From: a virus
Lineage: Duplodnaviria; Caudoviricetes
Direction: 5' to 3' (one strand)
IMG/VR virus record: IMGVR_UViG_2061766007_000330
DNA length: 64,000 nt
Shown here in pieces: positions 4,710 through 62,726 of the stretch (position 1 is its first letter; the number at the start of each line of letters is the position of its first letter). The notes under the pieces are model-generated. The model had not been told where the DNA came from. It was given only the letters and a program-made list of their open reading frames with translations, and made no database searches. Both the position numbers and the translations under genes were made by a program.

Positions 4710-5501
4710 TTATTTGAACAGACTATGGAAAATGTCATGAGCATGACCACGGGCGTCTCTCAGAACTTTACCACCCTCGTCAACATACCCATGAATTTTA
4801 CCGCAGATTTCGACATTGTCAACGCCGAGAATATCCAACAGTTCGTTGTCGTTTAGTGATTCTTGACCAATGATTTCTGTAATCTCAGAGACATGCTGTT
4901 CTGGATGTTCGATTGGAACAGAATAACCTTCACATGCTGGATCATAAACCTTGGAAGCTTCTGCATATCCTGGGCAGTCGACGGCATCAATGGTGATTAG
5001 TGCTGTGACCTTCTGTTTGATAACGAATCCATCTTCACCTGTCTTTGCGACCAGTGAACGTAATGAGAATGCAGGATTCAGAACAGGAGATTCGAGCGCT
5101 TCTTTGAGATACGTACCACATGGTCCAAACGGTTTGACATCCCCGTAGACAATCGTGTGACCTTTTTCGGTCGTTTTACCAGTGTAAACACGAAGAATCG
5201 TGTGACTAACTCGGGTACGGTCGATGGTCATGATGCGTGCCATTTCCTCGTCTTTGAAAATCAGAGGATGACACCATTCGCCTTCCAATTGACCAGCTTT
5301 GAGCTTCTTGCAAAACGTAGACGATGGAGAAGACAATGCTTCAACCATTGATTCAACTTCGTAGTCTTTCCCATTGCGGGAAACTTTTCCGATGACAAGT
5401 AGCGGAAGATCTTTGAAGATTCCGTTGCTGTCGGCTTTAAGTGCCTTCCCCTTTCCTTTCGTGGTGGTGATGGCACTGATATCAAAAGAAATATTTGACA
5501 T
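4710..5501 (-). CDS. Prohead (head maturation) protease, phiKZ gp175 / T4 gp21-like
   Basis: SRNGKDY, LEGEWCHP (His), IDRTRVSH, VKPFGP, AFSLRS (Ser), TIDAVDCPG (Asp). C-terminal ACE|G and GQE|S are candidate self-cleavage sites. Confidence 0.9.
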   Translation of the reverse strand: MSNISFDISAITTTKGKGKALKADSNGIFKDLPLLVIGKVSRNGKDYEVESMVEALSSPSSTFCKKLKAGQLEGEWCHPLIFKDEEMARIMTIDRTRVSHTILRVYTGKTTEKGHTIVYGDVKPFGPCGTYLKEALESPVLNPAFSLRSLVAKTGEDGFVIKQKVTALITIDAVDCPGYAEASKVYDPACEGYSVPIEHPEQHVSEITEIIGQESLNDNELLDILGVDNVEICGKIHGYVDEGGKVLRDARGHAHDIFHSLFK

Positions 5502-31761: not shown

Positions 31762-33333
31762 TTAATCAAAGACGTGAGCAATCTCTTCAAACCACGTTGG
31801 ACGAATGATGTTGCCATCCGAGTCAATCTCAAGATACGGGTTGATCTCACCACTGACAACCGGAGATGCCGACGGAACCGCATTAACGGATTCGACGACA
31901 AGCTGACTCGGATGAGCTTTGAGTTGGAATTTAGGTATTTTCTTCTTTGACGACTTCTTCTTGCCACCCTTGGACGATGAATCCAAATCGTCATACGATC
32001 TGAATCGTTTTCCAAGTACGGACAGGAACATGTTGTCATTGTAGACAGACGGGTTCACACGGAATATCCTAGTATTCTGGGACAACCAGTTCTTCCCTTG
32101 AGATGCTTTGGAGACAAAGTCTTTCATCTTGTTGTCATCAAGTTTCTCGGTTCTATTGTTCAATATACTGAACAGAATTCGATTCACTCGATTCACCAAA
32201 GGTGTCAACAAATGCTCCAACGACGCAATCTTCTTGTTGTACAGGTCGATCGGATCATACCCGACAACCCATTGATCAATGTTGAAGAACACGTCTTTGA
32301 CAAACTCGAAAATATCTGCAGACTTGATTCCGATGCTCCTCAGATGATGCTTCGTCTTAGGATCCAAAATCGTTATAGTTGTTTCCAAATGCTTTTTGGC
32401 ATTGTCATACAACAATTGTCCACGCGACATTTCCGTCTTTTCTGGGAAGATATACTTGCCCATGGTAATCTTGTAGAATGTATGATCTCCGTTGTCTAAC
32501 AAATCGTTTATTGATAATATGAAATCCTGGCATGCAGAACACAAGCGCAAATAGGACACCACGAATCTTCGAACAAAGATGTTCTCAAGTGATTTCTTAT
32601 TTACTCTTAAACATATCTGTCCTTTGATTGGGAAATACTCATAATCACTTGAATCGTTCTGATCAGACACCACGACTTGCATGACATCTGGACCAAAACC
32701 ATACAGCGATACAACTTGGTCAAATGAATACATGACCAAATCATACAAGATCACGGGCATGCGACCTAACTTACGGCCTGCTCGCGATTGTTTCTTCTGA
32801 TGAATATGAGCTGTCGGCACGACTTCCTTTAGTTCTTTTCCAGACTTTGCTGTAAACGTATACATTTCGTCTCGATAGAACGACAGGATGGCACGCATCA
32901 CTTTGAGCTTGATGCTATCCCTGCTACAGCACAATCCGCCACGTTCGACTTCAGGCAACAACAAATAATACTTGTTGCCGCTGTTCCAAATCATTTGGTT
33001 GCGCATATACGGGATGTAGACATATACAGGATACACTTTGTTGTTGAAATCGAAATTGAATTTCACGACCTCAAACGAGGACCGCTGGATTTCAATTGAA
33101 TTTTTTGCAATCTTTCTGTTCTTGATATACGCTACGTGTTCGATTGGACTTAACGATTCGTATCCGATATAACGAACAATTTGTCCATTCTCAAACAACA
33201 TTGGCATTTCACCAAAAACCGTGTTCAAATAGTCTTTGATTTCCTCAATCTTTTGTTTTCGGAAACCGATGAGTAGGTAATCATTGAAGGGCGGAAGTTC
33301 CGCCGAGGCGTTCTTTAATAATTTTCCCCACAT
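31762..33333 (-). CDS. rpoB: Non-virion RNA polymerase beta N-terminal subunit, phiKZ gp123-like
   Basis: LPPFN..L..GF N-terminus, Y.GY..LSP.E, YVYIPY, and C-terminal HPSQLVVES...SP..SG.INPY typical of gp123. Confidence 0.75.
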   Translation of the reverse strand: MWGKLLKNASAELPPFNDYLLIGFRKQKIEEIKDYLNTVFGEMPMLFENGQIVRYIGYESLSPIEHVAYIKNRKIAKNSIEIQRSSFEVVKFNFDFNNKVYPVYVYIPYMRNQMIWNSGNKYYLLLPEVERGGLCCSRDSIKLKVMRAILSFYRDEMYTFTAKSGKELKEVVPTAHIHQKKQSRAGRKLGRMPVILYDLVMYSFDQVVSLYGFGPDVMQVVVSDQNDSSDYEYFPIKGQICLRVNKKSLENIFVRRFVVSYLRLCSACQDFILSINDLLDNGDHTFYKITMGKYIFPEKTEMSRGQLLYDNAKKHLETTITILDPKTKHHLRSIGIKSADIFEFVKDVFFNIDQWVVGYDPIDLYNKKIASLEHLLTPLVNRVNRILFSILNNRTEKLDDNKMKDFVSKASQGKNWLSQNTRIFRVNPSVYNDNMFLSVLGKRFRSYDDLDSSSKGGKKKSSKKKIPKFQLKAHPSQLVVESVNAVPSASPVVSGEINPYLEIDSDGNIIRPTWFEEIAHVFD

Positions 33334-34778: not shown

Positions 34779-37097
34779 TTAGATTTCCAGAGGTCCTAAT
34801 TCAGCATAGTCTCCGTCGTATACAGGAACAGTGACGTCGGCATTCGTGTATCCACGAGTAGCGTTTACCATAGCCTGTATGTATTTGGCAGAAGATTTGC
34901 CGTATTCTGCTTCTAGTATCTTAGAATTTGTAAACGGAACATTCTTATCTTTATGTATTTTTCTGAATTTTGCATTTGTCACACACGGCAAATTGTAAAC
35001 GGAAGCACGCATAACATCCAACGCCAAATCTTTGTAGTTGATATTGGAAAAATCAATCGTGCAAACACCGTTTTCATCAAGATACGATTCGATATTTTCC
35101 GCATCATAAATCGGACGGTCTGGTTCGACAACGTTTCCATAAATGTCCATGCCGATAACCTGACCAGTTGAAAATTCGTTTGGATCGACAGCGACAATCA
35201 ACGGACGGATATAACCAATAGTCCTAGCAAGAACAATAAGGTCAGTAACGTTGAACAATGTCTGTTCTGCATTGCATTCGAGCATTGGATAAAGTTCTCG
35301 TGCATATCCAAGATCGATACCAGGTTCTTTGCAGATTTCGTAGAACAACTGCACTTCACCACGTTCTGCCGCTTCACGCAATTTGTCCGTCTGACATGCA
35401 GTAACTAAAGCAGATGTATCTTTAAGATTTACTATCTGACCAGGACGGGTAATGTTGCTAGACGACTTCGGCAACTTTGATTTGTGAGATTCGATTTTGT
35501 CTTCTGAGAACGAAGAAAGAAAGTCAGTCCACTGACTGATACAATCCATTGCTTTGGATTGAAGCTTCTTTAATTTGTTCAACAGTTTGAGCAAATCGCC
35601 CATGCCAAAGTCGAACATTGTGGAATTCAAGGATGTGTCCCAATAAGCCTTTTGTGGACACGCCAAGTCGGTGATAGTGTCTGCTAATGTGGTTAAAGAA
35701 AATGCGGCTTCCATCACCGTGTCATAAACAGATTTATCCTCTTTCGCACTGGCATCTTCCGTTTTCTTTTTGGCATTACAGCCTGCACTTTTCTTTCCAC
35801 AACATGCCGCACGTTTCTTCTTGTTTGCATCGTCGGTATTCGAATCTTCCGGATTTGTAGCATCCGGATCTTTGGCTTCGTCCGTTTGCTTATCTTTTGG
35901 TTTATCCGGAGATTTCTTCTCATCTGGATTTTCAACAGATCCAGGTGTCAGTTTCTTCAAAGCGGATTTCAGTTCGTTCGGAACACAGGTGTCGTAGAAG
36001 TGTTGACTCTGTTTTGTCACAATCTCCATGAACAAACTCTGGTTCTTCTCATCGACTTCTTTCTTCGCTTTTTCTCGTTCGGTGTTTAATTTCTTGGCAG
36101 CGTCTTCTTTCTGGGCCTGTTCTTTCTTGACATTATCAGCGGCTTTTGCTGATGTTTTTTCAGGATCATAAGTGAAGATACCGGCAATGCAATCAACAAT
36201 ACTGTTTATTTTTTGTTTCGTCAATGCCATAATGTCCGCCGGAACCGTATCTGAACTTTCACTGGCGTCATGATCAACAACAGTCCATCCTTCAGGCATG
36301 AGGATCTCTGGCATTTCATCTTGATTCGACATGGCACCAATGACGGCCATTTCGAGAGCCATTTGTTCGAAACTTTCGTCTTCGTTCAGCGTTGGAATCC
36401 CATCGCCTTCCATATCGATACCTTCCATGGCGTCTTCCATCGCCGCCATCGCACCCAGCATGGCTTCTTGTTCCATTGCTTCCATGACGCCTGGCGGTAA
36501 TTCGTTTTCCATTTCGGAAGCGGTCTCCTCTAGAGCGTCTTCAAACTCCATCTGGTGTGGAGAAATGAATTCGTCTTCCATCGGAGACCGGTCTTCCAGC
36601 ATATCGGCATTTGCTTTATCAACAGCATTCGCTGCGGATGTATCGTTTCCTTTTGTCGCGTCTTTTGCAGCATCGCCACCGGCGGCTCCAGCATCCGCAG
36701 CATCTTTGTTTTGTCCTTTAAAGAATCCAGAAATGGCATCAACTGATTTTGCTGCCAGATTGCCTGTCTCTTTAAGTCCCGCAATCGCTGCATCTTGAAT
36801 GGCACCACCAGCGGCCATAAGCTTTGTGCCAGCGTCTTTTGCTTGAGCCATGGCAACACCACCACCAATGGCGAGTCCCGTAATAACATTCACAGGGCTC
36901 AGTTTACCATTGACTAGCTGTGCGGCGCCTTTGCTTCTGGATCTGTTATTACCGGATAACAATCGAGTAACAGCATTTCCTGCTTTGATGTTTGAACGAA
37001 GCATTGTTTTTCCTCCATGATCGGAGATGGTGTATGAATTTCCACCAAAACTGACTTTAGAGGATTTTTCCGACAGAGATTGAAATCCAAAATTCAT
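34779..37097 (-). CDS. Putative processed head/inner-body or scaffold-like protein
   Basis: Acidic Met/Glu region with many A-x-E/S-x-E sites (ALE, ASE, AME x3, SFE); ATGA overlap with the polyprotein gene. Confidence 0.45.
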   Translation of the reverse strand: MNFGFQSLSEKSSKVSFGGNSYTISDHGGKTMLRSNIKAGNAVTRLLSGNNRSRSKGAAQLVNGKLSPVNVITGLAIGGGVAMAQAKDAGTKLMAAGGAIQDAAIAGLKETGNLAAKSVDAISGFFKGQNKDAADAGAAGGDAAKDATKGNDTSAANAVDKANADMLEDRSPMEDEFISPHQMEFEDALEETASEMENELPPGVMEAMEQEAMLGAMAAMEDAMEGIDMEGDGIPTLNEDESFEQMALEMAVIGAMSNQDEMPEILMPEGWTVVDHDASESSDTVPADIMALTKQKINSIVDCIAGIFTYDPEKTSAKAADNVKKEQAQKEDAAKKLNTEREKAKKEVDEKNQSLFMEIVTKQSQHFYDTCVPNELKSALKKLTPGSVENPDEKKSPDKPKDKQTDEAKDPDATNPEDSNTDDANKKKRAACCGKKSAGCNAKKKTEDASAKEDKSVYDTVMEAAFSLTTLADTITDLACPQKAYWDTSLNSTMFDFGMGDLLKLLNKLKKLQSKAMDCISQWTDFLSSFSEDKIESHKSKLPKSSSNITRPGQIVNLKDTSALVTACQTDKLREAAERGEVQLFYEICKEPGIDLGYARELYPMLECNAEQTLFNVTDLIVLARTIGYIRPLIVAVDPNEFSTGQVIGMDIYGNVVEPDRPIYDAENIESYLDENGVCTIDFSNINYKDLALDVMRASVYNLPCVTNAKFRKIHKDKNVPFTNSKILEAEYGKSSAKYIQAMVNATRGYTNADVTVPVYDGDYAELGPLEI

Positions 37098-40000
37098 ATG
37101 TTGCTCCTTAAATGCATTCCACGGAGCAAGATACCTGCCGTGACCGTGGCACGTGGACGATTTGATGCGTCAAGTGTATTTAACGACGCAGATCCTGTTT
37201 CTTCAAGATTACGTTTAAATTCAGCATAATTGGCAATGCTACCACCACGAACACTGACAAACTCATGTAGTGTTGCCTCCAACCCACGGGCTGCCAGAAT
37301 CTGAATTTCGGGATTCGTGACACCACAAGACTTGGAATCTGCCGTTACCTGACCGGTCAGTCCATCGATGGATTTATCGTCATCCGGAACAGACATCTTC
37401 TCGTCGAGGAACTGCTGTTGGCGACGAATCGGTAATTGCACTACCATGTATTCATTATCGGAAAGATATTTCTTTCCAGTAACTTTATCATGGAACCAGA
37501 TTTTGTGGAACATCTTCAATCCAAGTTCATCTGCGGCTTTCAAAAGGTTAGTGTTTTGCAACGCCACCTTCATGTTGGGTGCCAACAAATGCATCTTGAA
37601 TTTTCCAGACTTTACATTGTTCATGAACTCTGCAAATTCCTTTTCATTCATCCCACCAATCAGCTCACGATAGTAATTGGAATTATAATGTGTCGGATCG
37701 GCGATGTCGCAAATCTTACAGATATATGCAAGAATATCTTTCTTCTTTCCTGCGACGGTTCCTTCCAACGATGGAACTGAATCAGGAACAACATACGTTA
37801 ATTCTTCTAATTCAGATTTCCAGTTGAATAACCGTGGAAGAAGATTTGAGACAACCATGTTAGTCGTAGACTTTTCATCAATTGGATCGTAATAGCAACC
37901 GATATAATCAAACGAAACAGTGTTTGCAATGAAGTCTCTTGGCAGTGAGAATGTCGCACTGGTTCCGTCCTTTAACAGAATCGGGCACTTCGCAAACTGA
38001 TAAGCCGCTGCCATAACAGACGTGCAATAATGTGTTGCTTTTCTCGATCGAGAGACTTTGCCCAAGACAAACGTCGGGTCTTGGTTAAACCATTTCCTAA
38101 ATAGTGTGTGAATCACACCATTGCGATTATACGAATTATCGTGTTTGTAAACGTATTCAATGAAGTCGATGACTTTACGAACGACTTCGGGAGTTCGTTT
38201 CTTGTGTCGCAGCAATACAGCACCGCCACAATGTTCGAGGTACTGGGTCAGTGGAACTTTCTCAAGATTTAATGTTTCACCGACACCATATCCGCAAACG
38301 ATTCCGTTGTGGAGAATGATCTTACACGACACAAACGAGCAACCTTCAGCCGCCATATTTGCAATATTGTTGACTTTGTCCATGCCTTGTAGCATGTCGT
38401 ATTTTAACCATGGGATAATCAAATCACCAGGTTCTGCAGACGCCAACAATTTGTTTAAATCGATTTTTGGAATCTTCTTCATTGTGTCGCTGACATCTTT
38501 TCTAACACTCCAGAATTTTTCTTCTGAAATCATGTCAACAGATTCAGGATCAATGCCCTCAAATCCCAGCAATTGCTTTAACTTGTTCATTGGATCATAA
38601 AGAACATCAGAAGGCATATGGAACGCCGCTGCGATTGCATCGTCCGATGTCGGATCCTTAGACACATCACGTCCGTCGACAATAGCGCCAAATTGTTCAT
38701 CACTCCACTTCATAATGTCTTCCATTCGAGTAGAGAGATTGCCTTCTTTGCCAGTATCCAGAAGCATCGTGTAAATATACACTTCTGTGTCTTGTCCAAT
38801 GCGGTGAACACGGTCAGACGCTTGTTGATATTCAATGGAACGCCACGGTTTGTTTACAAACACGACTGTATTTGCAACAGTCAATGTTGCACCAGTTGAC
38901 AGTGTCTTAAGTGAAGCAATCAGAGGATTAAACTTCGGGTCTGTCTTAAAGGCGTCCAGAGTCTGTGGCAACATGTCAATGTTCTTACCATAGACCATCA
39001 ACGGCTTCATTCCTTTCTGTCGTAAATAGGTGTCGCATAATTCAATCGTCTCAACAAAGCTGGTGAATACAACCGTTTTCTTTTTCGCGAATTGAATGAT
39101 TTTCACAAGATCAGAGGCTGGCAGCATTTCACAGGTCATCTGCATACGCAGCCGTGTAAGCAAGTCACCCAGTACTTCGCCTTTGATTTTCAGCGATAGA
39201 TATTTGTAAGCAGTTTTGCCGTGTTGGAACTTCTTCTTGAGTTCTGTCGGTAACAGAGGTTCAAAAACTTCACGTTCGTATTTGTTAGCTTCTTGAATCT
39301 TTTCGCCTACTTCTCTGATTTTGTCTTGGTTGTCATGCAACCAAATAATAAACGAACAATACGATTCAAACTCGGATGTCTTGCCTTCTGCGGTTTTTTC
39401 AACATAGTCAAGAGCTTCCATGACTTCTTTCTCGTAAATAGGCATCATTTTTGTATGATACGCATACCGTTCTTTCGTGTACTTTTCTATTTCGAGTTTA
39501 ACAGAAGACAACGTGTAGTTACGTCCAGTTGGCATTTTAACCATGTTGTATAATTCGTGTTTGTCTGGCAATGAATCGCCAAGCGTGTCACGAAGAACAC
39601 GATACATGACACGGTTAATTCTGGCGTTCAAAACATCCTGAGCAGCAGAGACTGTATACCCAAAGATGTCTTTGAACATGTCTTTGGCTTCTTGGTCGAA
39701 TAGCGGATCAAGCATTTGAAGCATGGGAATCATCTCAGCTCCATAGCACTTTAGCGGTGTACCAGACATTAGAAGAATGTCTGTTGTTGGAACACTGCGA
39801 AGTCCGTTTGTGAGTTCAACCATCAACTGGACACGCTTAGCAGCTTCTCTCAGGAAGTTGTGAGATTCATCAAGAATGACACCTACCGTTTTATTCGCAT
39901 AATGTCCATCCTTGAGATGTTGCAGAACGTATGGAAGTGCGTCGTAATTGTAGATTTCATAACGGCACTTTACTGCGTTGTTGTATGCTGTCTTTGAACA

Positions 40001-42565
40001 CGGAGACGAATGAACATAAGCGGTATTGTTTGACGCAACAAATGTCTTAATGTGATACTCCCATGTTTCTTCCATCGTGTTTTTTGGACAGATAATGATA
40101 ATCTTGTCTTTTTCCAACTGTTCCATTAGTCCGATGGCGGTCATTGTTTTACCAAGACCCTGATCAAACGACAGAAGATATCCATTTAAATGATTACCGT
40201 CTTTCAGATTAACATACTGATCCAGAAATTCCTGCTGATGCTTGAGGAACTTTACTTTCGGCATTTGCTTCTTAAGCGCCGCTGGATTTGATTTCGTATG
40301 ATAAACTGGTTCTTTTGATACCCATGTCTTATTGTAAATCTCATTAATCAATGACGGTGGAAATTCAAATTTGTTGAGCAGGTAAAGAATCTCAGGTATG
40401 AAGAAATTGTGGATAGCCACTTGTCGTGATGAATAGCCACGTTTTACACCTAAACAATAAGCGAGTTTATCTAATTTTGTTGTGTGGTATTCGTCATGTA
40501 ACGCATTACAAAACGCCTGATACGGGAAATTATCACATACGTAGTAGTTTGATGTGTATGGAATATCTGGCTCTTGCGCCGACTGATCGGAGAATCCTTC
40601 GGTTGATGTTAGAGAATCATTTCTCGGGTGTTCTAGAAGCTGTTCAAATGAATTGTGCTCAGGATGACGCTTTGCATACACACGGAGAATAATTTCACCT
40701 TGGGCCGTCGTTAATCTCTTGCACTGTTTTCTGACTGCATCGACGTATTTTCCGTAGGCAATCGTCCAGAGTTTTGGACGTTTGACATAGTCGTCCAATA
40801 CAGGATAACCCAATTTTGTGTATTTAACAGCGTCTTTAACAGCCTGATAATGACTTCTGTGATAGTTAACGATTCCTTTGATATAGACCTTCGTCAGATA
40901 CCAGCCAATGTCAGGTAAGTTTGCATCAGCCGACATCAGGAAATCACCTAAATCAGATGCAGGAACTTTTTCTTTGAAATCATGATCCGCAATAGCACGA
41001 CAGATAGCCGCCAAATCTTTTGTTTCAAAGATGTCTTTTAGTTCATCACGGGCAATACGTGCGGCAACTACACCGTGATTTTCTCTGCCACAGGTGTATT
41101 TAGCAACATCGTGGTACATGATTGTTGCGTATTCTAGAATTGTCATCGGTGAATTCCGCTGACGACACAGATAGTACCCGTGGTTTAGAACACGTTGTAA
41201 ATGCGGCATGGCGTTTGGACCGTCTTGATGATAATGAGGCAACGCACGTTCACGAATCTTATCTTCCAGTCCTTCTGGAAACTCTCCATAAGGCTCGACG
41301 GAATCCAAGTCGATCTCGATTACAGGTTTGTAGATAAACGTAGGTTCGGAACCGTTGAACTTTGAACCGTTGTATCCTTCACCCATCCGTTTACAATCTT
41401 GTAGCCATTTGTCACACAAGATAGGTACTGTAAGTTTCGAAAAGTCATGCTCATTCAGAACCTGTACCATGACGCTTTCAGTATCTAGTTCTTCTTCATT
41501 GCACCATGTATGGATTCTGTATGCAATAGCCTTCCATTCTGTAATAAATGGTTCAGGGCAGTATCCGTTTTCTGTCCCATAAATGTCGATGACATAAAAA
41601 CCACCAACATCGTGAATTACAATGAACGAATGAGTTTTCATTCCGGTGAATAGAACCACCAGTTTGAATTCGATGTCCAAATCATCGCATTTTGTTCCAA
41701 TAGCCATGGATGCGTCATGGCACATTCCATAGCCGTTTTTAAGATACATCTTTGGCGACTGCACTTGAATGCATTGTGGATCGCCTTCTTCATTTGTAAG
41801 ACGTTTCTTGTTGGTTCCGTACAATCCGTATGGTAAGGATTTAAGCTTTTCAATATAAGGAATTAAATCCTGAAGCGGTGTTTCGGAAGAATTTTTCTTT
41901 GTTGTCCACTTTGCATCTCGTTGCAATGCCAATGCCTCATTACTGAAATCGTATTTCAAATATGTCTCGATTTCGGCTTTAATGGTAGACATTGGAATAG
42001 ATATGAAATGGAGTTGAGCAAACCACGCATCAAAAGATTTCCCGCCTCTTGGATAAGCCAGTCCTTGGTGAATACCGCACATCAGCGGATTTCGTTTTCC
42101 GTCTTTTGCCCAGATAGTAAACCGAAGTGCAACAGCTTCGTTGAACGTGTTGCATTCATATTTTGAATAGTTTTGAGCGCTGTCAGAAACATCAATGACA
42201 ATCCACTTCTTCCGTTGGTTTTCGATGGCAATACAAGGATGGACATAGGCGACATCTGAGAATTGCTCTCTGTTTCTATCAGTGAACATGACACACCGAT
42301 ACTTAAGCCTATATTCACGACACACGTGGTTTAGATAAACCGCAGCGTCGATCTCGTTTCCTTGTTTGTTTTCAACGTATTCCTTGTCTGTTTGAACATA
42401 TAAATCATCACCTTTTGTCAATGGCGATGTTTTCCAAACATGGCTATCGCCTTTGATGACAAAGTTGCCATATTTGGATTCTGCGATGTTCATTAAAGCA
42501 TTTAATATAGCCTTATAAACGTGGTCCGATTCTACGGATTCCACGGAAAAAAACTGTGTTTTCAT
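37094..42565 (-). CDS. Multidomain polyprotein: 2 transglutaminase-like domains, HD domain, SNF2 helicase, permuted NlpC/P60-like domain, vRNAP beta C-terminal fragment (phiKZ gp176-like)
   Basis: GMCHD/THSF/VID triad; H...HD...H...HD...D; DQGLGKT, DESH, SGTP, QASDRVHRIGQ; PGDLI...YCTS; LPIRRQQQFLDEKMS...LTGQVT...PEIQILAARGL..TLHEF.SVRGG. AAGGAG RBS. Confidence 0.85.
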   Translation of the reverse strand: MKTQFFSVESVESDHVYKAILNALMNIAESKYGNFVIKGDSHVWKTSPLTKGDDLYVQTDKEYVENKQGNEIDAAVYLNHVCREYRLKYRCVMFTDRNREQFSDVAYVHPCIAIENQRKKWIVIDVSDSAQNYSKYECNTFNEAVALRFTIWAKDGKRNPLMCGIHQGLAYPRGGKSFDAWFAQLHFISIPMSTIKAEIETYLKYDFSNEALALQRDAKWTTKKNSSETPLQDLIPYIEKLKSLPYGLYGTNKKRLTNEEGDPQCIQVQSPKMYLKNGYGMCHDASMAIGTKCDDLDIEFKLVVLFTGMKTHSFIVIHDVGGFYVIDIYGTENGYCPEPFITEWKAIAYRIHTWCNEEELDTESVMVQVLNEHDFSKLTVPILCDKWLQDCKRMGEGYNGSKFNGSEPTFIYKPVIEIDLDSVEPYGEFPEGLEDKIRERALPHYHQDGPNAMPHLQRVLNHGYYLCRQRNSPMTILEYATIMYHDVAKYTCGRENHGVVAARIARDELKDIFETKDLAAICRAIADHDFKEKVPASDLGDFLMSADANLPDIGWYLTKVYIKGIVNYHRSHYQAVKDAVKYTKLGYPVLDDYVKRPKLWTIAYGKYVDAVRKQCKRLTTAQGEIILRVYAKRHPEHNSFEQLLEHPRNDSLTSTEGFSDQSAQEPDIPYTSNYYVCDNFPYQAFCNALHDEYHTTKLDKLAYCLGVKRGYSSRQVAIHNFFIPEILYLLNKFEFPPSLINEIYNKTWVSKEPVYHTKSNPAALKKQMPKVKFLKHQQEFLDQYVNLKDGNHLNGYLLSFDQGLGKTMTAIGLMEQLEKDKIIIICPKNTMEETWEYHIKTFVASNNTAYVHSSPCSKTAYNNAVKCRYEIYNYDALPYVLQHLKDGHYANKTVGVILDESHNFLREAAKRVQLMVELTNGLRSVPTTDILLMSGTPLKCYGAEMIPMLQMLDPLFDQEAKDMFKDIFGYTVSAAQDVLNARINRVMYRVLRDTLGDSLPDKHELYNMVKMPTGRNYTLSSVKLEIEKYTKERYAYHTKMMPIYEKEVMEALDYVEKTAEGKTSEFESYCSFIIWLHDNQDKIREVGEKIQEANKYEREVFEPLLPTELKKKFQHGKTAYKYLSLKIKGEVLGDLLTRLRMQMTCEMLPASDLVKIIQFAKKKTVVFTSFVETIELCDTYLRQKGMKPLMVYGKNIDMLPQTLDAFKTDPKFNPLIASLKTLSTGATLTVANTVVFVNKPWRSIEYQQASDRVHRIGQDTEVYIYTMLLDTGKEGNLSTRMEDIMKWSDEQFGAIVDGRDVSKDPTSDDAIAAAFHMPSDVLYDPMNKLKQLLGFEGIDPESVDMISEEKFWSVRKDVSDTMKKIPKIDLNKLLASAEPGDLIIPWLKYDMLQGMDKVNNIANMAAEGCSFVSCKIILHNGIVCGYGVGETLNLEKVPLTQYLEHCGGAVLLRHKKRTPEVVRKVIDFIEYVYKHDNSYNRNGVIHTLFRKWFNQDPTFVLGKVSRSRKATHYCTSVMAAAYQFAKCPILLKDGTSATFSLPRDFIANTVSFDYIGCYYDPIDEKSTTNMVVSNLLPRLFNWKSELEELTYVVPDSVPSLEGTVAGKKKDILAYICKICDIADPTHYNSNYYRELIGGMNEKEFAEFMNNVKSGKFKMHLLAPNMKVALQNTNLLKAADELGLKMFHKIWFHDKVTGKKYLSDNEYMVVQLPIRRQQQFLDEKMSVPDDDKSIDGLTGQVTADSKSCGVTNPEIQILAARGLEATLHEFVSVRGGSIANYAEFKRNLEETGSASLNTLDASNRPRATVTAGILLRGMHLRSNI

Positions 42566-42603
42566 AAAGGTTACTCCTTGGCTGTAAAATTTGCTATACG
42601 ATG

Positions 42604-42632
42604 ACTCGGGTACGTGGAAAACGTACCCGAGT
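42604..42632. terminator. Intergenic hairpin
   Basis: ACTCGGGTACGT-ggaaa-ACGTACCCGAGT. Confidence 0.75.
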
Positions 42633-43232: not shown

Positions 43233-43715
43233 ATGGAAGAGAATCAACAACCGCAAGGCGAAACTCCTTGCAAAGATCAGATTGCCGTTTTACTTGCAAA
43301 AGCTGCATGTGATGAAAAGACTGCCGAGTATCAATACCAGATTGCTGCGCATATTGCCAGAGGACCTGGATATTGTGATGTCCACGATGAGTATTTAAAA
43401 CACGCTGATGAAGAGCGTGCACATTTTCAAGAGATTCTTAATCGTCTCGAACAGATTGGTGCTGGGTTTGCGTTCGATCTTTGTGATGTTGCTCAGAAAG
43501 GTAATCCGTGGACACCGATTCAGACAGCTAATGTCAAAGAGCAACTGGCGATTCTTATCAAAGCAGAACAGGACGCACAGACGTTCTACACGAGCATTGT
43601 CAATGCCGCACGTGCTTGCGAAGACTGGATTACCAATCGTCTGTTTAAGAAATTATTGGCGGACGAGTGTGAACATGAGACCGACCTCAAGCGTATTTTG
43701 GAGCATCTTGGATAA
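43233..43715 (+). CDS. Ferritin-like diiron protein (bacterioferritin/Dps-like)
   Basis: DE..A..QY, EERAH, R..Q.G, KAEQDA..FY, DECEH: full ferroxidase ligand pattern. Confidence 0.88.
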   Translation: MEENQQPQGETPCKDQIAVLLAKAACDEKTAEYQYQIAAHIARGPGYCDVHDEYLKHADEERAHFQEILNRLEQIGAGFAFDLCDVAQKGNPWTPIQTANVKEQLAILIKAEQDAQTFYTSIVNAARACEDWITNRLFKKLLADECEHETDLKRILEHLG

Positions 43716-59638: not shown

Positions 59639-59690
59639 CGTATGTACCTGTCGAATTTAGATAATAGTATCTTTGATTATAGAGGTTTCC

Positions 59691-62600
59691 ATGCCACAAT
59701 TAAAACCAATTAACATTGAGATTGAGGACCCAGAGAAGTACATACGGGAAAACGATCTCAAGCCGATTACTGCGGCATTTATTCACGAGTCGTCATCTAC
59801 CAAATTTCACCACGGTGGATTGTTCTCCGAGGAGATATTCGGGCAGATAGGGTCGACTGAACGAATGGTGAAGTTTGGATACATCGATTTACGCACACGT
59901 GTGTTCCAGCCTGTCATCTACAAAAACCTTATCAAACTGAAAGCTCTTTATGGCGAAGTCATTAGCCGGAAGGCGTATGCCAAATACAACAAATCCTTGG
60001 GTGATCTTGAAAGAACAAATCCGGATGACGAAGAAGGAAATACAGGATTTGCTTATTTCATGTCGATTCTTCCAAATCTGAAATTTGAGAAGAACAATTC
60101 CATCAAGCAGAACGATCGTGTGGATGTTCTGACAAAATACAGAAACAATTCCACAATGACAAAACTGCTGGTAATTCCTGCAGGCATTCGAGACATGAAC
60201 GAGGATGAAGGTCGTCCATCTGCGGACAGTATCAACAGTCTCTATACCTCGTTGTTTAATTACACCATGGCGTTGCCACCCAACGGATCCGAAGACGAAG
60301 TCTATGACGGAGTTCGTTATGCCATTCAGAAAAAGATTGATCAAATTTATGATTATCTTTTTAATATGTGTGAAGGAAAACGAGGATTCTGGCAAAAGAA
60401 ATATGGTGAACGTGCACTGGCGCTAGGTACTCGTAATGTCATTTCTACAGCTGACATGGGATCTGCATCACCACAATCTGAACAGGCGATTAAAATTGAT
60501 GAGATGAAACTCCCAACATTCCAAGCTGCTAAAGGATTCTTGCCGGCTGTCATATATCATCTAAAGGATAAGTTTTTTTCTCGTATCTTCAAAAACTCTG
60601 CAGACCAAGTGGCGTTGGTTGATCCAAAGACATACGACTTGGTTTATCAACCTGTAACTGAAGATGAAAAAATGCGGTTTTTGTCAACGGATGGTTTAAG
60701 CAAATTAGTGAATCTCTTCAGAGACAGAGAATTCCGATTCAATCCTGTGGTTATTCATAACACGGATGACAAGCCGTTCTATTTGTGTATGGTCTACGAT
60801 GATGGTGATCGTGTTTGGATTAGCAGTTCCATGTCAGAACTTATATCGTATTTCACCGAACACAAGATACCATACAACAAATCAAAGGTTCGACCCATTA
60901 CCTATTTTGAAATCATGTACATCGCTACGTATCATGCGACGTGCGAACGGCATGCTACGGTAACTCGGTATCCATGCACAGATACGGGTTCTGATGTTCC
61001 TTGTAAGGTTCATCTGATGTCCACAAACCCTGGTCGTATCGTGGATTTGATGAACACAGCAGACGATGCTGTCACCCTAACTTATCCGGAGTATCCAATC
61101 ATGAATAAATCAAGCGTTGACTCTACCGTGTTACATCCAAGTATTCTCATAGGTCTTGGTGCGGACTTTGATGGAAATTGCGTTTCTGGCGATAGTTATG
61201 TCATTCTTGCTTACACTCAAGAATGGCTCAGAGAGACCATTCGCGGTTGTATCATACCATCGCACGAAGCCAGAAAACCAATGGGTGCTATTCCGTACAT
61301 GGGGGTTAACAGACTTCGTAGTAATCTCGAGAAGAACACCTTTGATCGTCTGAATGATGACATCTATCTTGCCGAAATACAGATTAAATATTTCCCGCAT
61401 GTCTCTGCTTACACCTATGACAAAAACGGTGCGAAAGTCTATGAAGTTCCGAAAGGCTGCTGTGTTGCATCGTTTGATCCGGTGACCAATAATTATCAGT
61501 TATATCCGATTACCACATTCACTGTGGAAAATCGGTGTGAAGCGGTTGAGTGCCACTTTGCAACAAAGAAAATAACAGTGTCTCGAAACGAATCTATTGC
61601 CATATTTAACAGAGAATCAGGGAGTCTGTTAAGAACATCTCCAGAACTATGCAAGGCGTATGACTGTGTTCCTGTGTTTCGCAGAGAGCCGTTAAGTTAT
61701 GGAAGCAAACGCACGTATCAGGATGGATATACAGACGGTCTGAAACTGCTGCATTTGCCACCGCCGTGTCAGACATTCCATCGTCCTCCTCGTCCAATTA
61801 TTCCGTTTGTATTCTGGCTTAAACGGTCATACGGATGTTTCCCGAAACCGTTGTTCATACACAACATTCACATGCCTCCAATGCCGAAACACCTCACCAG
61901 AAATTATTTGCGTGAGTCATCTAGTTCGTATCTTTGGGGACTGTTTAACGGACTGTTCAAAGATTCTGGTGTGTTATACACAGATCCAAAAACATCGTTA
62001 GTGCATTTCTACATCTATACGCCGATGCCTGATTTGCCTCCGATTATTCAGTTCTTGTTCTATTTGTTAGGTCTTCGTTACACGTATCTTTATTACATTG
62101 ACGAACGTGGCCACGAGCATTATGCGATTGAATTGAATCCAACCGACATCTATAACAACAGTGAACGTCTGCTTTTTACAGACGCCGAAGACTATCGTGT
62201 GTTTGAATGTTGGCGAAACGGGAAATGCCCGTTTGATCCATCAGACAGAATTCCATTAACAAAATTCGAATCAGAATGGTTGTCCAACAATCTAACGCCG
62301 ATGGCAGAACCGATTCGTCCGTATCTTACAGACCCATTACGTTCAGATGTTCCTCGTCAACTCCTGAAAGAATACGAAGCACATCTGGAACATTGGCAAC
62401 TCTACAGTCTGATTATGCGTATCAACGCAACATGTGTTCTGTGGGAATCCATCGAAGAATGTAAACCTGTTAAAGAGATTCCTGTATTTGACTTCCAGGT
62501 TCCAAAGTCTAAAGTATTTGTCATCAACGACGGTGTTGTTGTCTACGATACTGTTTCGGTTGACAGCATTCTTTCAGACGAGTCAAACAAGGAAGTTGAA

Positions 62601-62726
62601 AATCACTTGAACAGTGTCGGTCGTTATGTTCACTCAAACGGTTCGTTGATTATGGGTTATGATGACCTGATTGCACTCACGTTGTTTAATCTGTCTCGTG
62701 ATCCAGACGCTGAAATGAAGAAATAA
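59691..62726 (+). CDS. rpoC: Virion RNA polymerase beta' N-terminal (catalytic) subunit, phiKZ gp180-like, intein-containing
   Basis: GLFSEEIFG, FGYIDL, VIPAGIRD, GKRG, GTRNVIS, TRYP, GADFDG catalytic motif interrupted by a 457-aa insertion; ATG 59691 after GAGG. Confidence 0.9.
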   Translation: MPQLKPINIEIEDPEKYIRENDLKPITAAFIHESSSTKFHHGGLFSEEIFGQIGSTERMVKFGYIDLRTRVFQPVIYKNLIKLKALYGEVISRKAYAKYNKSLGDLERTNPDDEEGNTGFAYFMSILPNLKFEKNNSIKQNDRVDVLTKYRNNSTMTKLLVIPAGIRDMNEDEGRPSADSINSLYTSLFNYTMALPPNGSEDEVYDGVRYAIQKKIDQIYDYLFNMCEGKRGFWQKKYGERALALGTRNVISTADMGSASPQSEQAIKIDEMKLPTFQAAKGFLPAVIYHLKDKFFSRIFKNSADQVALVDPKTYDLVYQPVTEDEKMRFLSTDGLSKLVNLFRDREFRFNPVVIHNTDDKPFYLCMVYDDGDRVWISSSMSELISYFTEHKIPYNKSKVRPITYFEIMYIATYHATCERHATVTRYPCTDTGSDVPCKVHLMSTNPGRIVDLMNTADDAVTLTYPEYPIMNKSSVDSTVLHPSILIGLGADFDGNCVSGDSYVILAYTQEWLRETIRGCIIPSHEARKPMGAIPYMGVNRLRSNLEKNTFDRLNDDIYLAEIQIKYFPHVSAYTYDKNGAKVYEVPKGCCVASFDPVTNNYQLYPITTFTVENRCEAVECHFATKKITVSRNESIAIFNRESGSLLRTSPELCKAYDCVPVFRREPLSYGSKRTYQDGYTDGLKLLHLPPPCQTFHRPPRPIIPFVFWLKRSYGCFPKPLFIHNIHMPPMPKHLTRNYLRESSSSYLWGLFNGLFKDSGVLYTDPKTSLVHFYIYTPMPDLPPIIQFLFYLLGLRYTYLYYIDERGHEHYAIELNPTDIYNNSERLLFTDAEDYRVFECWRNGKCPFDPSDRIPLTKFESEWLSNNLTPMAEPIRPYLTDPLRSDVPRQLLKEYEAHLEHWQLYSLIMRINATCVLWESIEECKPVKEIPVFDFQVPKSKVFVINDGVVVYDTVSVDSILSDESNKEVENHLNSVGRYVHSNGSLIMGYDDLIALTLFNLSRDPDAEMKK
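61179..62549 (+). mobile_element. Non-canonical intein with degenerate LAGLIDADG endonuclease
   Basis: Block A CVSGDSYV; block B SRNES (no His); endonuclease remnants GLFNGLFKDSG and IQFLFYLLG; blocks F/G VFDFQVP.SKVFVINDGVVVYD|T. Confidence 0.85.

Follow-up and report, generated by a model that had tools for sequence, protein, structure and literature searches.

How a phage comes to encode, within one open reading frame (ORF), a fragment of its virion RNA polymerase (RNAP), a helicase and several further enzyme domains, and how such a chain would become working proteins, is the question raised by a locus in the virus record IMGVR_UViG_2061766007_000330. The window, by which we mean the whole stretch of DNA that was analysed, comprises 64 kb from an uncultured phage, and copy-number checks for the source phage were confined to it. 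Profile and family matches place a tail sheath, head proteins and RNAP pieces in the window, which is, on sequence grounds, part of a phiKZ-like jumbo phage genome; a DNA-level search of isolate phages with the window gave no match. The gene in question lies at 37094..42565 on the minus strand (stop codon 37094-37096) and specifies a product of 1823 amino acids (aa). From sequence comparisons we consider it fairly probable that this product is a polyprotein that is packaged in the phage head and cut in trans by a prohead protease of the S80 family, with the pieces being injected into the host.

The fused modules and their relatives

An earlier reading of this DNA from its letters alone, hereafter the sequence-only reading, had divided the product into six modules: two transglutaminase-like domains, an HD domain, a SNF2 helicase, a permuted NlpC/P60-like domain and a C-terminal piece of the RNAP beta subunit. 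All six were recovered in that order, the assignment of module 1 being tentative. Two of them form the core of the protein. The SNF2 helicase module (residues 657-1336; 38558..40597, minus strand) matches Pfam families PF00176 (69 bits) and PF00271 (49 bits), contains GLGKT and DESH motifs, and is the orthologue of phiKZ gp203, with which it shares 32% identity over 647 residues (E 6e-102). The terminal module (residues 1602-1823; 37097..37762, minus strand) is the orthologue of phiKZ gp149: residues 1606-1823 cover positions 3-222 of the 225 in profile phrog_3233 (E 2.6e-65), and identity to gp149 in tblastn is 35% over the full length.

In phiKZ the two proteins are the products of separate genes, as the sequence-only reading had stated, and the phiKZ record lists both as structural proteins and assigns gp149 to the head. 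The locus described here differs in that both orthologues reside in one ORF together with additional enzyme modules. The virion RNAP of phiKZ is present in about ten copies per head. Its gp149 subunit is a separate C-terminal piece of beta (PMC7824862; bioRxiv 10.1101/2024.03.24.586471), which is reportedly packaged and co-injected and tolerates a C-terminal fluorescent-protein fusion (bioRxiv 10.1101/2024.03.24.586471), and gp203 is reportedly packaged in the head, processed there by the head protease and dispensable in the laboratory (bioRxiv 10.1101/2025.11.23.690004). Among 386 isolate records with a match to the polyprotein, no single place covers 80% of the query, and the best isolate hits have the helicase and the beta piece at two separate places.

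The sizes and ends of the products expected from cleavage were compared with those of the phiKZ proteins. The predicted product G657-E1336 would contain 680 aa, against 703 aa for gp203; residue 14 of gp203 aligns with residue 668, which puts the start of gp203 within a few residues of the candidate site STE656/G. The predicted product G1602-I1823 would contain 222 aa, against 224 aa for gp149. With termini and sizes matching so closely, the cleaved products would be nearly residue-for-residue equivalents of the two proteins that phiKZ makes separately.

The source of the window is a metagenomic assembly, and an assembly chimera or a sequencing frameshift could in principle have fused genes that are separate in the phage. 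We regard such an artefact as barely credible. The ORF runs for 5.5 kb with no internal stop, is preceded by an AAGGAG ribosome-binding site 9 nt 5' of its ATG, and is predicted to yield an identical 1823-aa product on two contigs, of 91 kb and 132 kb, that were assembled independently; the single intact ORF of the sequence-only reading therefore stands. The nearest relatives keep the same gene order, consisting of a 163-aa gene, the polyprotein gene and a large downstream gene, and dozens of independent long ORFs follow the same plan.

These relatives were found by a homologue search of 5.8 billion proteins, which returned 378 hits; architectures were counted in the best 100 clusters, and 120 relatives were listed. 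About 90 of the best 100 metagenomic clusters (1100-2900 aa) consist of variable modules followed by a terminal gp149 module, which is always C-terminal, and nearly all of these also carry the same SNF2 helicase. The variable modules include HD, YiiX-like, GNAT acetyltransferase, NADAR and DUF5662 domains. Both HD and YiiX-like modules can stand on either side of the helicase, HD in one to three copies and YiiX-like in as many as three. Comparison of relatives, which had been proposed as a check, thus revealed the same fusion with its modules exchanged.

A query for related loci with the single protein recovered no relative; an alignment query then recovered loci in IMG/VR. These lie on contigs of 235-361 kb and comprise fusions of 1225-2608 aa, a fusion of 565 aa that lacks the helicase, and three unfused gp149-type genes of 223-230 aa (L006, L010 and L011). 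Phylogenetic analysis of the gp149 module groups the fused forms in one clade (support 100/99), separate from phiKZ and other unfused forms, with one unfused sequence unresolved at the base of the fused clade. The only phrog_3233 match in each of the complete relatives G001, G002 and G005 sits inside the polyprotein, and the helicase is single-copy and inside the polyprotein in G001 and G002 as well as in G003, which is 92% complete. The S80 protease is present in one copy in each of five relative records.

Several of these loci have peculiarities of their own. The 565-aa fusion (L007; IMGVR_UViG_3300001528_000425, 235 kb, complete, with terminal repeats) joins an unknown module of about 350 aa to the gp149 piece through a linker containing A/G-M-E sites, and a search of that genome for a gp203-type helicase found none at E<=1e-10. 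In IMGVR_UViG_3300045988_163688 (361 kb) the same 1599-aa polyprotein locus appears near both ends in opposite orientation (L003 and L004), which probably reflects concatenation during assembly or a long terminal duplication. Five shorter SNF2 relatives of about 1000-1060 aa (P0094-P0098) were also found; three of the five (P0094, P0096 and P0097) contain a LAGLIDADG (PF14528) insertion within the helicase, which suggests an intein or a homing endonuclease.

Candidate cut sites and the prohead protease

The enzyme proposed to process the polyprotein is encoded in the same window at 4710..5501 (minus strand). Its product matches the MEROPS/Pfam S80 family, to which phiKZ gp175 belongs, with 95 bits against a cut-off of 23.4 (PF20034, Peptidase_S80) and phrog_3014 with E 5.6e-32, so that the gp175-type protease of the sequence-only reading is indeed present. 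S80 proteases cut after Glu at A/S-x-E (PMC5694885; PMC10052503). The head proteins processed by phiKZ gp175 and SPN3US gp245 are a close comparison, the protease family and the S/A/G-x-E motif cut after Glu being the same. Shared with them is a short leader ending in SVE: the polyprotein opens with the 12 residues MKTQFFSVESVE (42530..42565, minus strand), containing two S-V-E sites with Glu 9 and Glu 12, and this leader, which relatives do not conserve, is similar to those of phiKZ gp93 (cleaved at SLE-13) and SPN3US gp53/54 (SVE-15) (PMC5694885). Tandem sites occur also in the linkers of the polyprotein.

The S/G-x-E sites that had been quoted for the leader and the module boundaries, with Glu at 9/12, 210, 424, 656, 1336 and 1601, are all present at the coordinates given for them. 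On the minus strand, junction 1 carries S-N-E210/A (41936..41944), in a segment with a low predicted local distance difference test score (pLDDT) and lacking homology coverage; junction 2 carries S-V-E424/P (41294..41302), within residues 395-430 where pLDDT is below 50; and junction 3 carries S-T-E656/G (40598..40606), which aligns with S-[T/M/D]-E/G in relatives. At junction 4, G-F-E1336/G (38558..38566), and junction 5, S-L-E1601/G (37763..37771), pLDDT is again below 50. Several junctions hold two candidate sites. S-S-E228/T (41882..41890) lies directly before the module 2 fold, and stand-alone homologues of module 2 start at about this position; S-E-E1349/K (38519..38527) lies at the N-terminal edge of the YiiX-like fold, and its Glu is invariant in 15 homologues. 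SSE228 and SEE1349 are extra candidates that are probably better placed, and from the alignment SEE1349 is probably better than, or additional to, GFE1336 as a cut site.

Linkers were defined independently of the motif, from homology breakpoints and low pLDDT, and make up 15.5% of the residues. The polyprotein contains 26 [SAG]xE motifs where 20 are expected, and 11 of the 26 lie in linkers (binomial p 1e-3), an enrichment that the sequence-only reading had suggested testing.

Conservation across the family gives a firmer view of the same positions. Segmentation by all-against-all coverage failed to delimit linkers because close relatives align straight through them, and it was replaced by junction windows anchored on conserved modules. 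A [SAG]xE motif was found no more than 15 residues upstream of the gp149 module in all 28 non-redundant relatives, with the consensus S-[M/T]-E/A; random windows of the same proteins contain one in 25% of cases and shuffles of the same linkers in 63%, giving a composition-corrected binomial p of 3e-6. HD modules are preceded by [SAG]xE in 19 of 21 relative windows (p 5e-7). Upstream of the helicase, 23 of 25 relatives have an S-x-E/G site 8-32 residues (mostly 17-20) before the conserved anchor, and many relatives have G-F-E or S/G-L-E after the helicase, aligned with GFE1336. The YiiX-like module opens with S-x-E, its Glu being invariant in 15 of 15 sequences whatever precedes it. STE656, GFE1336 and SLE1601 thus each align with conserved family positions. 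Apart from these sites, neither the length nor the sequence of the linkers is conserved; tandem sites are frequent, and the aligned junction S-x-E persists where the flanking modules differ. None of the three unfused gp149 homologues from IMG/VR has an S-x-E leader, which assigns the motif to the linker rather than the module. Taken from the alignments, the site signal is strong at the level of the family and modest in the single protein.

These observations bear on the possibility that the protein is never cut and acts as a giant virion-RNAP subunit, with the helicase and the other enzymes remaining tethered, in the manner of RapA, both in the head and after injection. Fused proteins that are functionally linked need no cleavage; the SNF2 helicase has been proposed to act with RNAP, this region of beta is fused to an HD domain in Bacillus jumbo phages (both Iyer et al. 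2021, PMC7824862), and phiKZ gp149 tolerates its fluorescent-protein fusion (bioRxiv 10.1101/2024.03.24.586471). An uncut protein would not account, however, for S-x-E being kept at aligned junctions amid otherwise unconserved linkers, often in tandem; phiKZ-type phages use the same proteins as separate chains, and one fixed polymerase architecture could hardly accommodate a subunit of 1100-2900 aa whose modules are freely shuffled. We therefore consider an uncut subunit unlikely.

Accessory modules and proposed processing

The remaining modules were characterized individually, in part through structure prediction, which had been suggested for defining domain limits and which placed folds at residues 229-395 (module 2) and 1348-1563 (module 5), with a poor result for module 1. 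Modules 1, 2 and 5 have no PHROG or Pfam matches, and modules 2 and 5 were identified through structure prediction.

Module 2 (residues 211-424; 41294..41935, minus strand) is modelled with pLDDT 76-95 over residues 231-370, and its structural matches are vasohibin (Z 10.0), LapG (Z 9.7) and CPR-C4 protease (Z 9.4). Across 11 aligned sequences, residues C282, H312 and D327 vary little or not at all, and the module is, according to the model, a transglutaminase-like cysteine-protease fold with an intact Cys-His-Asp triad. The cut-off of Pfam PF04473 is passed by its homologue P0128 only and not by the polyprotein. Stand-alone homologues of 150-200 aa occur in metagenomes (P0123-P0130), and a copy of module 2 is present in P0122, a multi-module protein that also has HD and DUF5662 domains; judged by their sequences, the homologues constitute a small transglutaminase-like family without a name. 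Module 1 (residues 13-210; 41936..42529, minus strand) appears to be a degenerate paralogue of module 2, to which it is weakly related in BLASTP (E 2e-4), and a single distant homologue was found among 1.8 billion representatives. Its Glu71 aligns with the catalytic Cys282 of module 2, and it is probably, at low confidence, an inactive copy.

The HD phosphohydrolase module (residues 425-656; 40598..41293, minus strand) matches PF01966 at residues 455-533 with 22.6 bits, just at the cut-off; its identity is backed by phrog_3921 (E 1.6e-9), Escherichia coli YedJ (3gw7, E 5e-4) and homologous HD modules in relatives. A tblastn search of isolate phages with residues 1-660 came back empty, so that at this sensitivity cultured phages lack modules 1 and 2 as well as this variant of HD. 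Module 5 (residues 1337-1601; 37763..38557, minus strand) matches 3kw0 and YiiX (2if6) with Foldseek probability 1.0 and a template modelling (TM) score of 0.70-0.73. Cys1514 is invariant in the homologue alignment, in which no invariant His was seen; the model points to a permuted papain-like fold of the YiiX type (peptidase C92-like), and the module is a putative thiol enzyme.

The presence of two thiol-peptidase folds raises the possibility that module 2, the YiiX-like module or both process the polyprotein in place of the prohead protease. Module 2 combines a protease-type fold with an intact triad, module 5 a papain-like fold with an invariant Cys, and autoprocessing by embedded peptidases has been proposed for polyvalent proteins (Iyer et al. 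2017, PMC5512222). Self-processing is nevertheless improbable, more so than an uncut subunit, because most relatives lack the embedded thiol peptidases and yet retain the sites: among the 120 listed relatives module 2 occurs in this polyprotein only, the wider search adding P0122, and the roughly two-thirds of relatives that have no detectable YiiX-like module keep the junction S-x-E (for example P0032, P0035 and P0090). The consensus itself has Ser at P3 and Glu at P1, as do the sites of prohead proteases of the S80 and T4 types.

The upstream modules could also be an oversized propeptide that aids loading or chaperoning of the beta piece and the helicase and is then degraded or left in the capsid, with no role in the host. 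Most of the cuts in SPN3US and phiKZ remove N-terminal propeptides, extra sites within propeptides are thought to aid their clearance, and module 1 looks catalytically dead. Catalytic residues are conserved, on the other side, in module 2, HD, the helicase and module 5; relatives exchange GNAT, NADAR, HD and DUF5662 domains, kinds that are regarded in work on polyvalent proteins as injected effectors or enzymes of counter-defence; and folded domains of 20-75 kDa would be unlikely to escape from a closed capsid. A discarded propeptide is in our estimate as doubtful as a subunit that stays whole.

The preferred account, processing in trans by the head protease, would proceed as follows. The precursor would enter the prohead through its C-terminal module, most likely within the assembled virion RNAP, and loading of this kind would fix the cargo at one copy per polymerase. 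In SPN3US, the virion-RNAP subunits must already be assembled into a complex to enter the prohead (PMC5694885), which makes the C-terminal gp149 module a plausible loading anchor. During head maturation the S80 protease would cut after Glu at S/G-x-E in the disordered linkers, freeing the helicase, the beta piece and the accessory enzymes, and all products would be ejected with the DNA. The helicase and polymerase would then serve early transcription, and, at time zero, the accessory enzymes would act either on targets in the host or on its defences. Packaging, cleavage, injection and any part played by the accessory enzymes are steps that we infer, and the roles suggested for these enzymes are guesses from the kinds of domain.

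A number of points weigh against this account. The statistics of the single protein are one: the sequence-only reading took the placement of S/G-x-E at all five junctions as its signal, and all five are indeed hit, although the chance of hitting every internal linker (p 0.034 under random placement, 0.015 under shuffling) makes this weaker evidence than had been implied. Its own caution that so short a motif as [SAG]xE arises by chance is borne out by these values. Fifteen further motifs lie inside folded modules, where they are not depleted, and in the family the Ser/Glu/Ala-rich composition of the linkers explains part of the enrichment, as the shuffles indicate. A conserved N-terminal capsid-targeting leader was sought across the family and not found, and module 1 is poorly defined, its predicted structure being of low confidence. 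The cuts mapped in SPN3US are removals of N-terminal propeptides, except for a C-terminal self-cleavage of the protease, and the release of multiple products is undocumented there (PMC10052503). Finally, the polyprotein and its relatives all come from uncultured phages and are known from sequence alone.

Comparison with other systems indicates what is particular to this one. SPN3US substrates of the S80 protease mostly lose an N-terminal propeptide, whereas the polyprotein is predicted to yield five or six folded proteins. Polyvalent proteins are likewise large strings of unrelated enzyme domains, among them SNF2, peptidases and GNAT; packaging, delivery together with the DNA and separation into units have been proposed for them, and some carry a virion RNAP of the N4-like kind (Iyer et al. 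2017, PMC5512222). That work does not deal with phiKZ-like phages, the words 'phiKZ' and 'jumbo' being absent from it. With six modules, several of them unrelated enzyme domains, and an architecture that varies among relatives, the polyprotein resembles this class. It differs from the polyvalent proteins described in that its anchor is a fragment of a multisubunit RNAP and is always C-terminal, in that no metallopeptidase (MPTase) domain was detected by Pfam at E<=1, and in that processing is predicted to occur in trans, by the capsid maturation protease acting at linker motifs.

The fusion of HD to the C-terminal region of beta in group 1 Bacillus jumbo phages (Iyer et al. 2021, PMC7824862) consists of two domains in a different phage group and as described has no helicase, shuffled modules or protease-site linkers; the tblastn search with residues 1-660 found nothing similar to the present HD module in isolate phages.

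The internal proteins of T4 and Alt carry a capsid-targeting sequence, are cut by gp21 after Glu and are then injected. The T4 cargo consists of single proteins with an N-terminal targeting peptide; here there is no conserved N-terminal tag, and the constant element is C-terminal. The literature searched contains no description of a multisubunit virion-RNAP piece that ends a helicase-effector polyprotein with head-protease linkers, and the constant gp149 terminus is the new point of this polyprotein.

This constancy suggests a more general possibility, which we put forward tentatively and with somewhat less than even confidence, namely that the gp149-type beta piece is a C-terminal loading and injection adaptor for any enzyme placed behind an S-x-E linker. 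If so, cargo would be co-packaged with the virion RNAP, freed by the head protease and delivered at time zero into the early infection compartment or the cytoplasm, and a large uncultured phiKZ-like clade would possess natural, evolvable plug-and-play effector cassettes. It would also provide direct genetic evidence for the head SNF2 helicase as a working partner of the virion polymerase.

The fusion and its proposed processing have several further implications. The fusion makes a link of the Rosetta-stone type between the phiKZ-family head helicase gp203, of unknown function, and the injected RNAP, and supports the published guess that the helicase has a role in early transcription. A large clade of uncultured jumbo phages would deliver swappable enzymes (HD, thiol hydrolases, GNAT and NADAR among others) in the first wave of infection, and these are candidates for new counter-defence or host-takeover activities. 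The polyvalent-protein idea would be extended to processing in trans by a capsid maturation protease, and the S-[M/T]-E/A linker code, together with the constant C-terminal module, suggests a simple route for loading chosen proteins into phiKZ-like capsids.

Neighbouring genes

Immediately downstream of the polyprotein, and translationally coupled to it, is a gene for an acidic, low-complexity protein of 772 aa (34779..37097, minus strand). Its ATG overlaps the polyprotein stop codon (ATATGA) and is preceded by AAGGAG. The protein is rich in Ala, Glu and Lys, contains repeated A-M-E strings, and has no family match in Pfam or PHROG. In relatives the same position downstream of the polyprotein is also occupied by a gene (588 aa). 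The 772-aa protein may be a head-internal or scaffold-like protein.

Two other ORFs in the window resemble RNAP subunits. The ORF at 59673-62726 (plus strand) encodes 1017 aa, of which the first ~520 residues match a phiKZ-like RNAP subunit (phrog_2986, tblastn) and the other ~500 are unmatched. The ORF at 31762-33333 (minus strand) encodes 523 aa with weak identity, about 20-23%, to the 'RNA polymerase beta subunit' of the Erwinia phage RAY gp002 type, which Prichard et al. classed as a non-virion RNAP subunit; by this resemblance, genes for the virion RNAP and the non-virion RNAP lie close together here.

Between the 163-aa gene and the ribosome-binding site of the polyprotein gene lies a perfect GC-rich hairpin (42597-42625, minus strand; CTCGGGTACG ... 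CGTACCCGAG) without a trailing run of T residues. Farther along, an ORF at 43233-43715 (plus strand) encodes 160 aa, for which the gene table of the matching contig lists Ferritin and Rubrerythrin Pfam hits, a ferritin-like gene being unusual in a phage.

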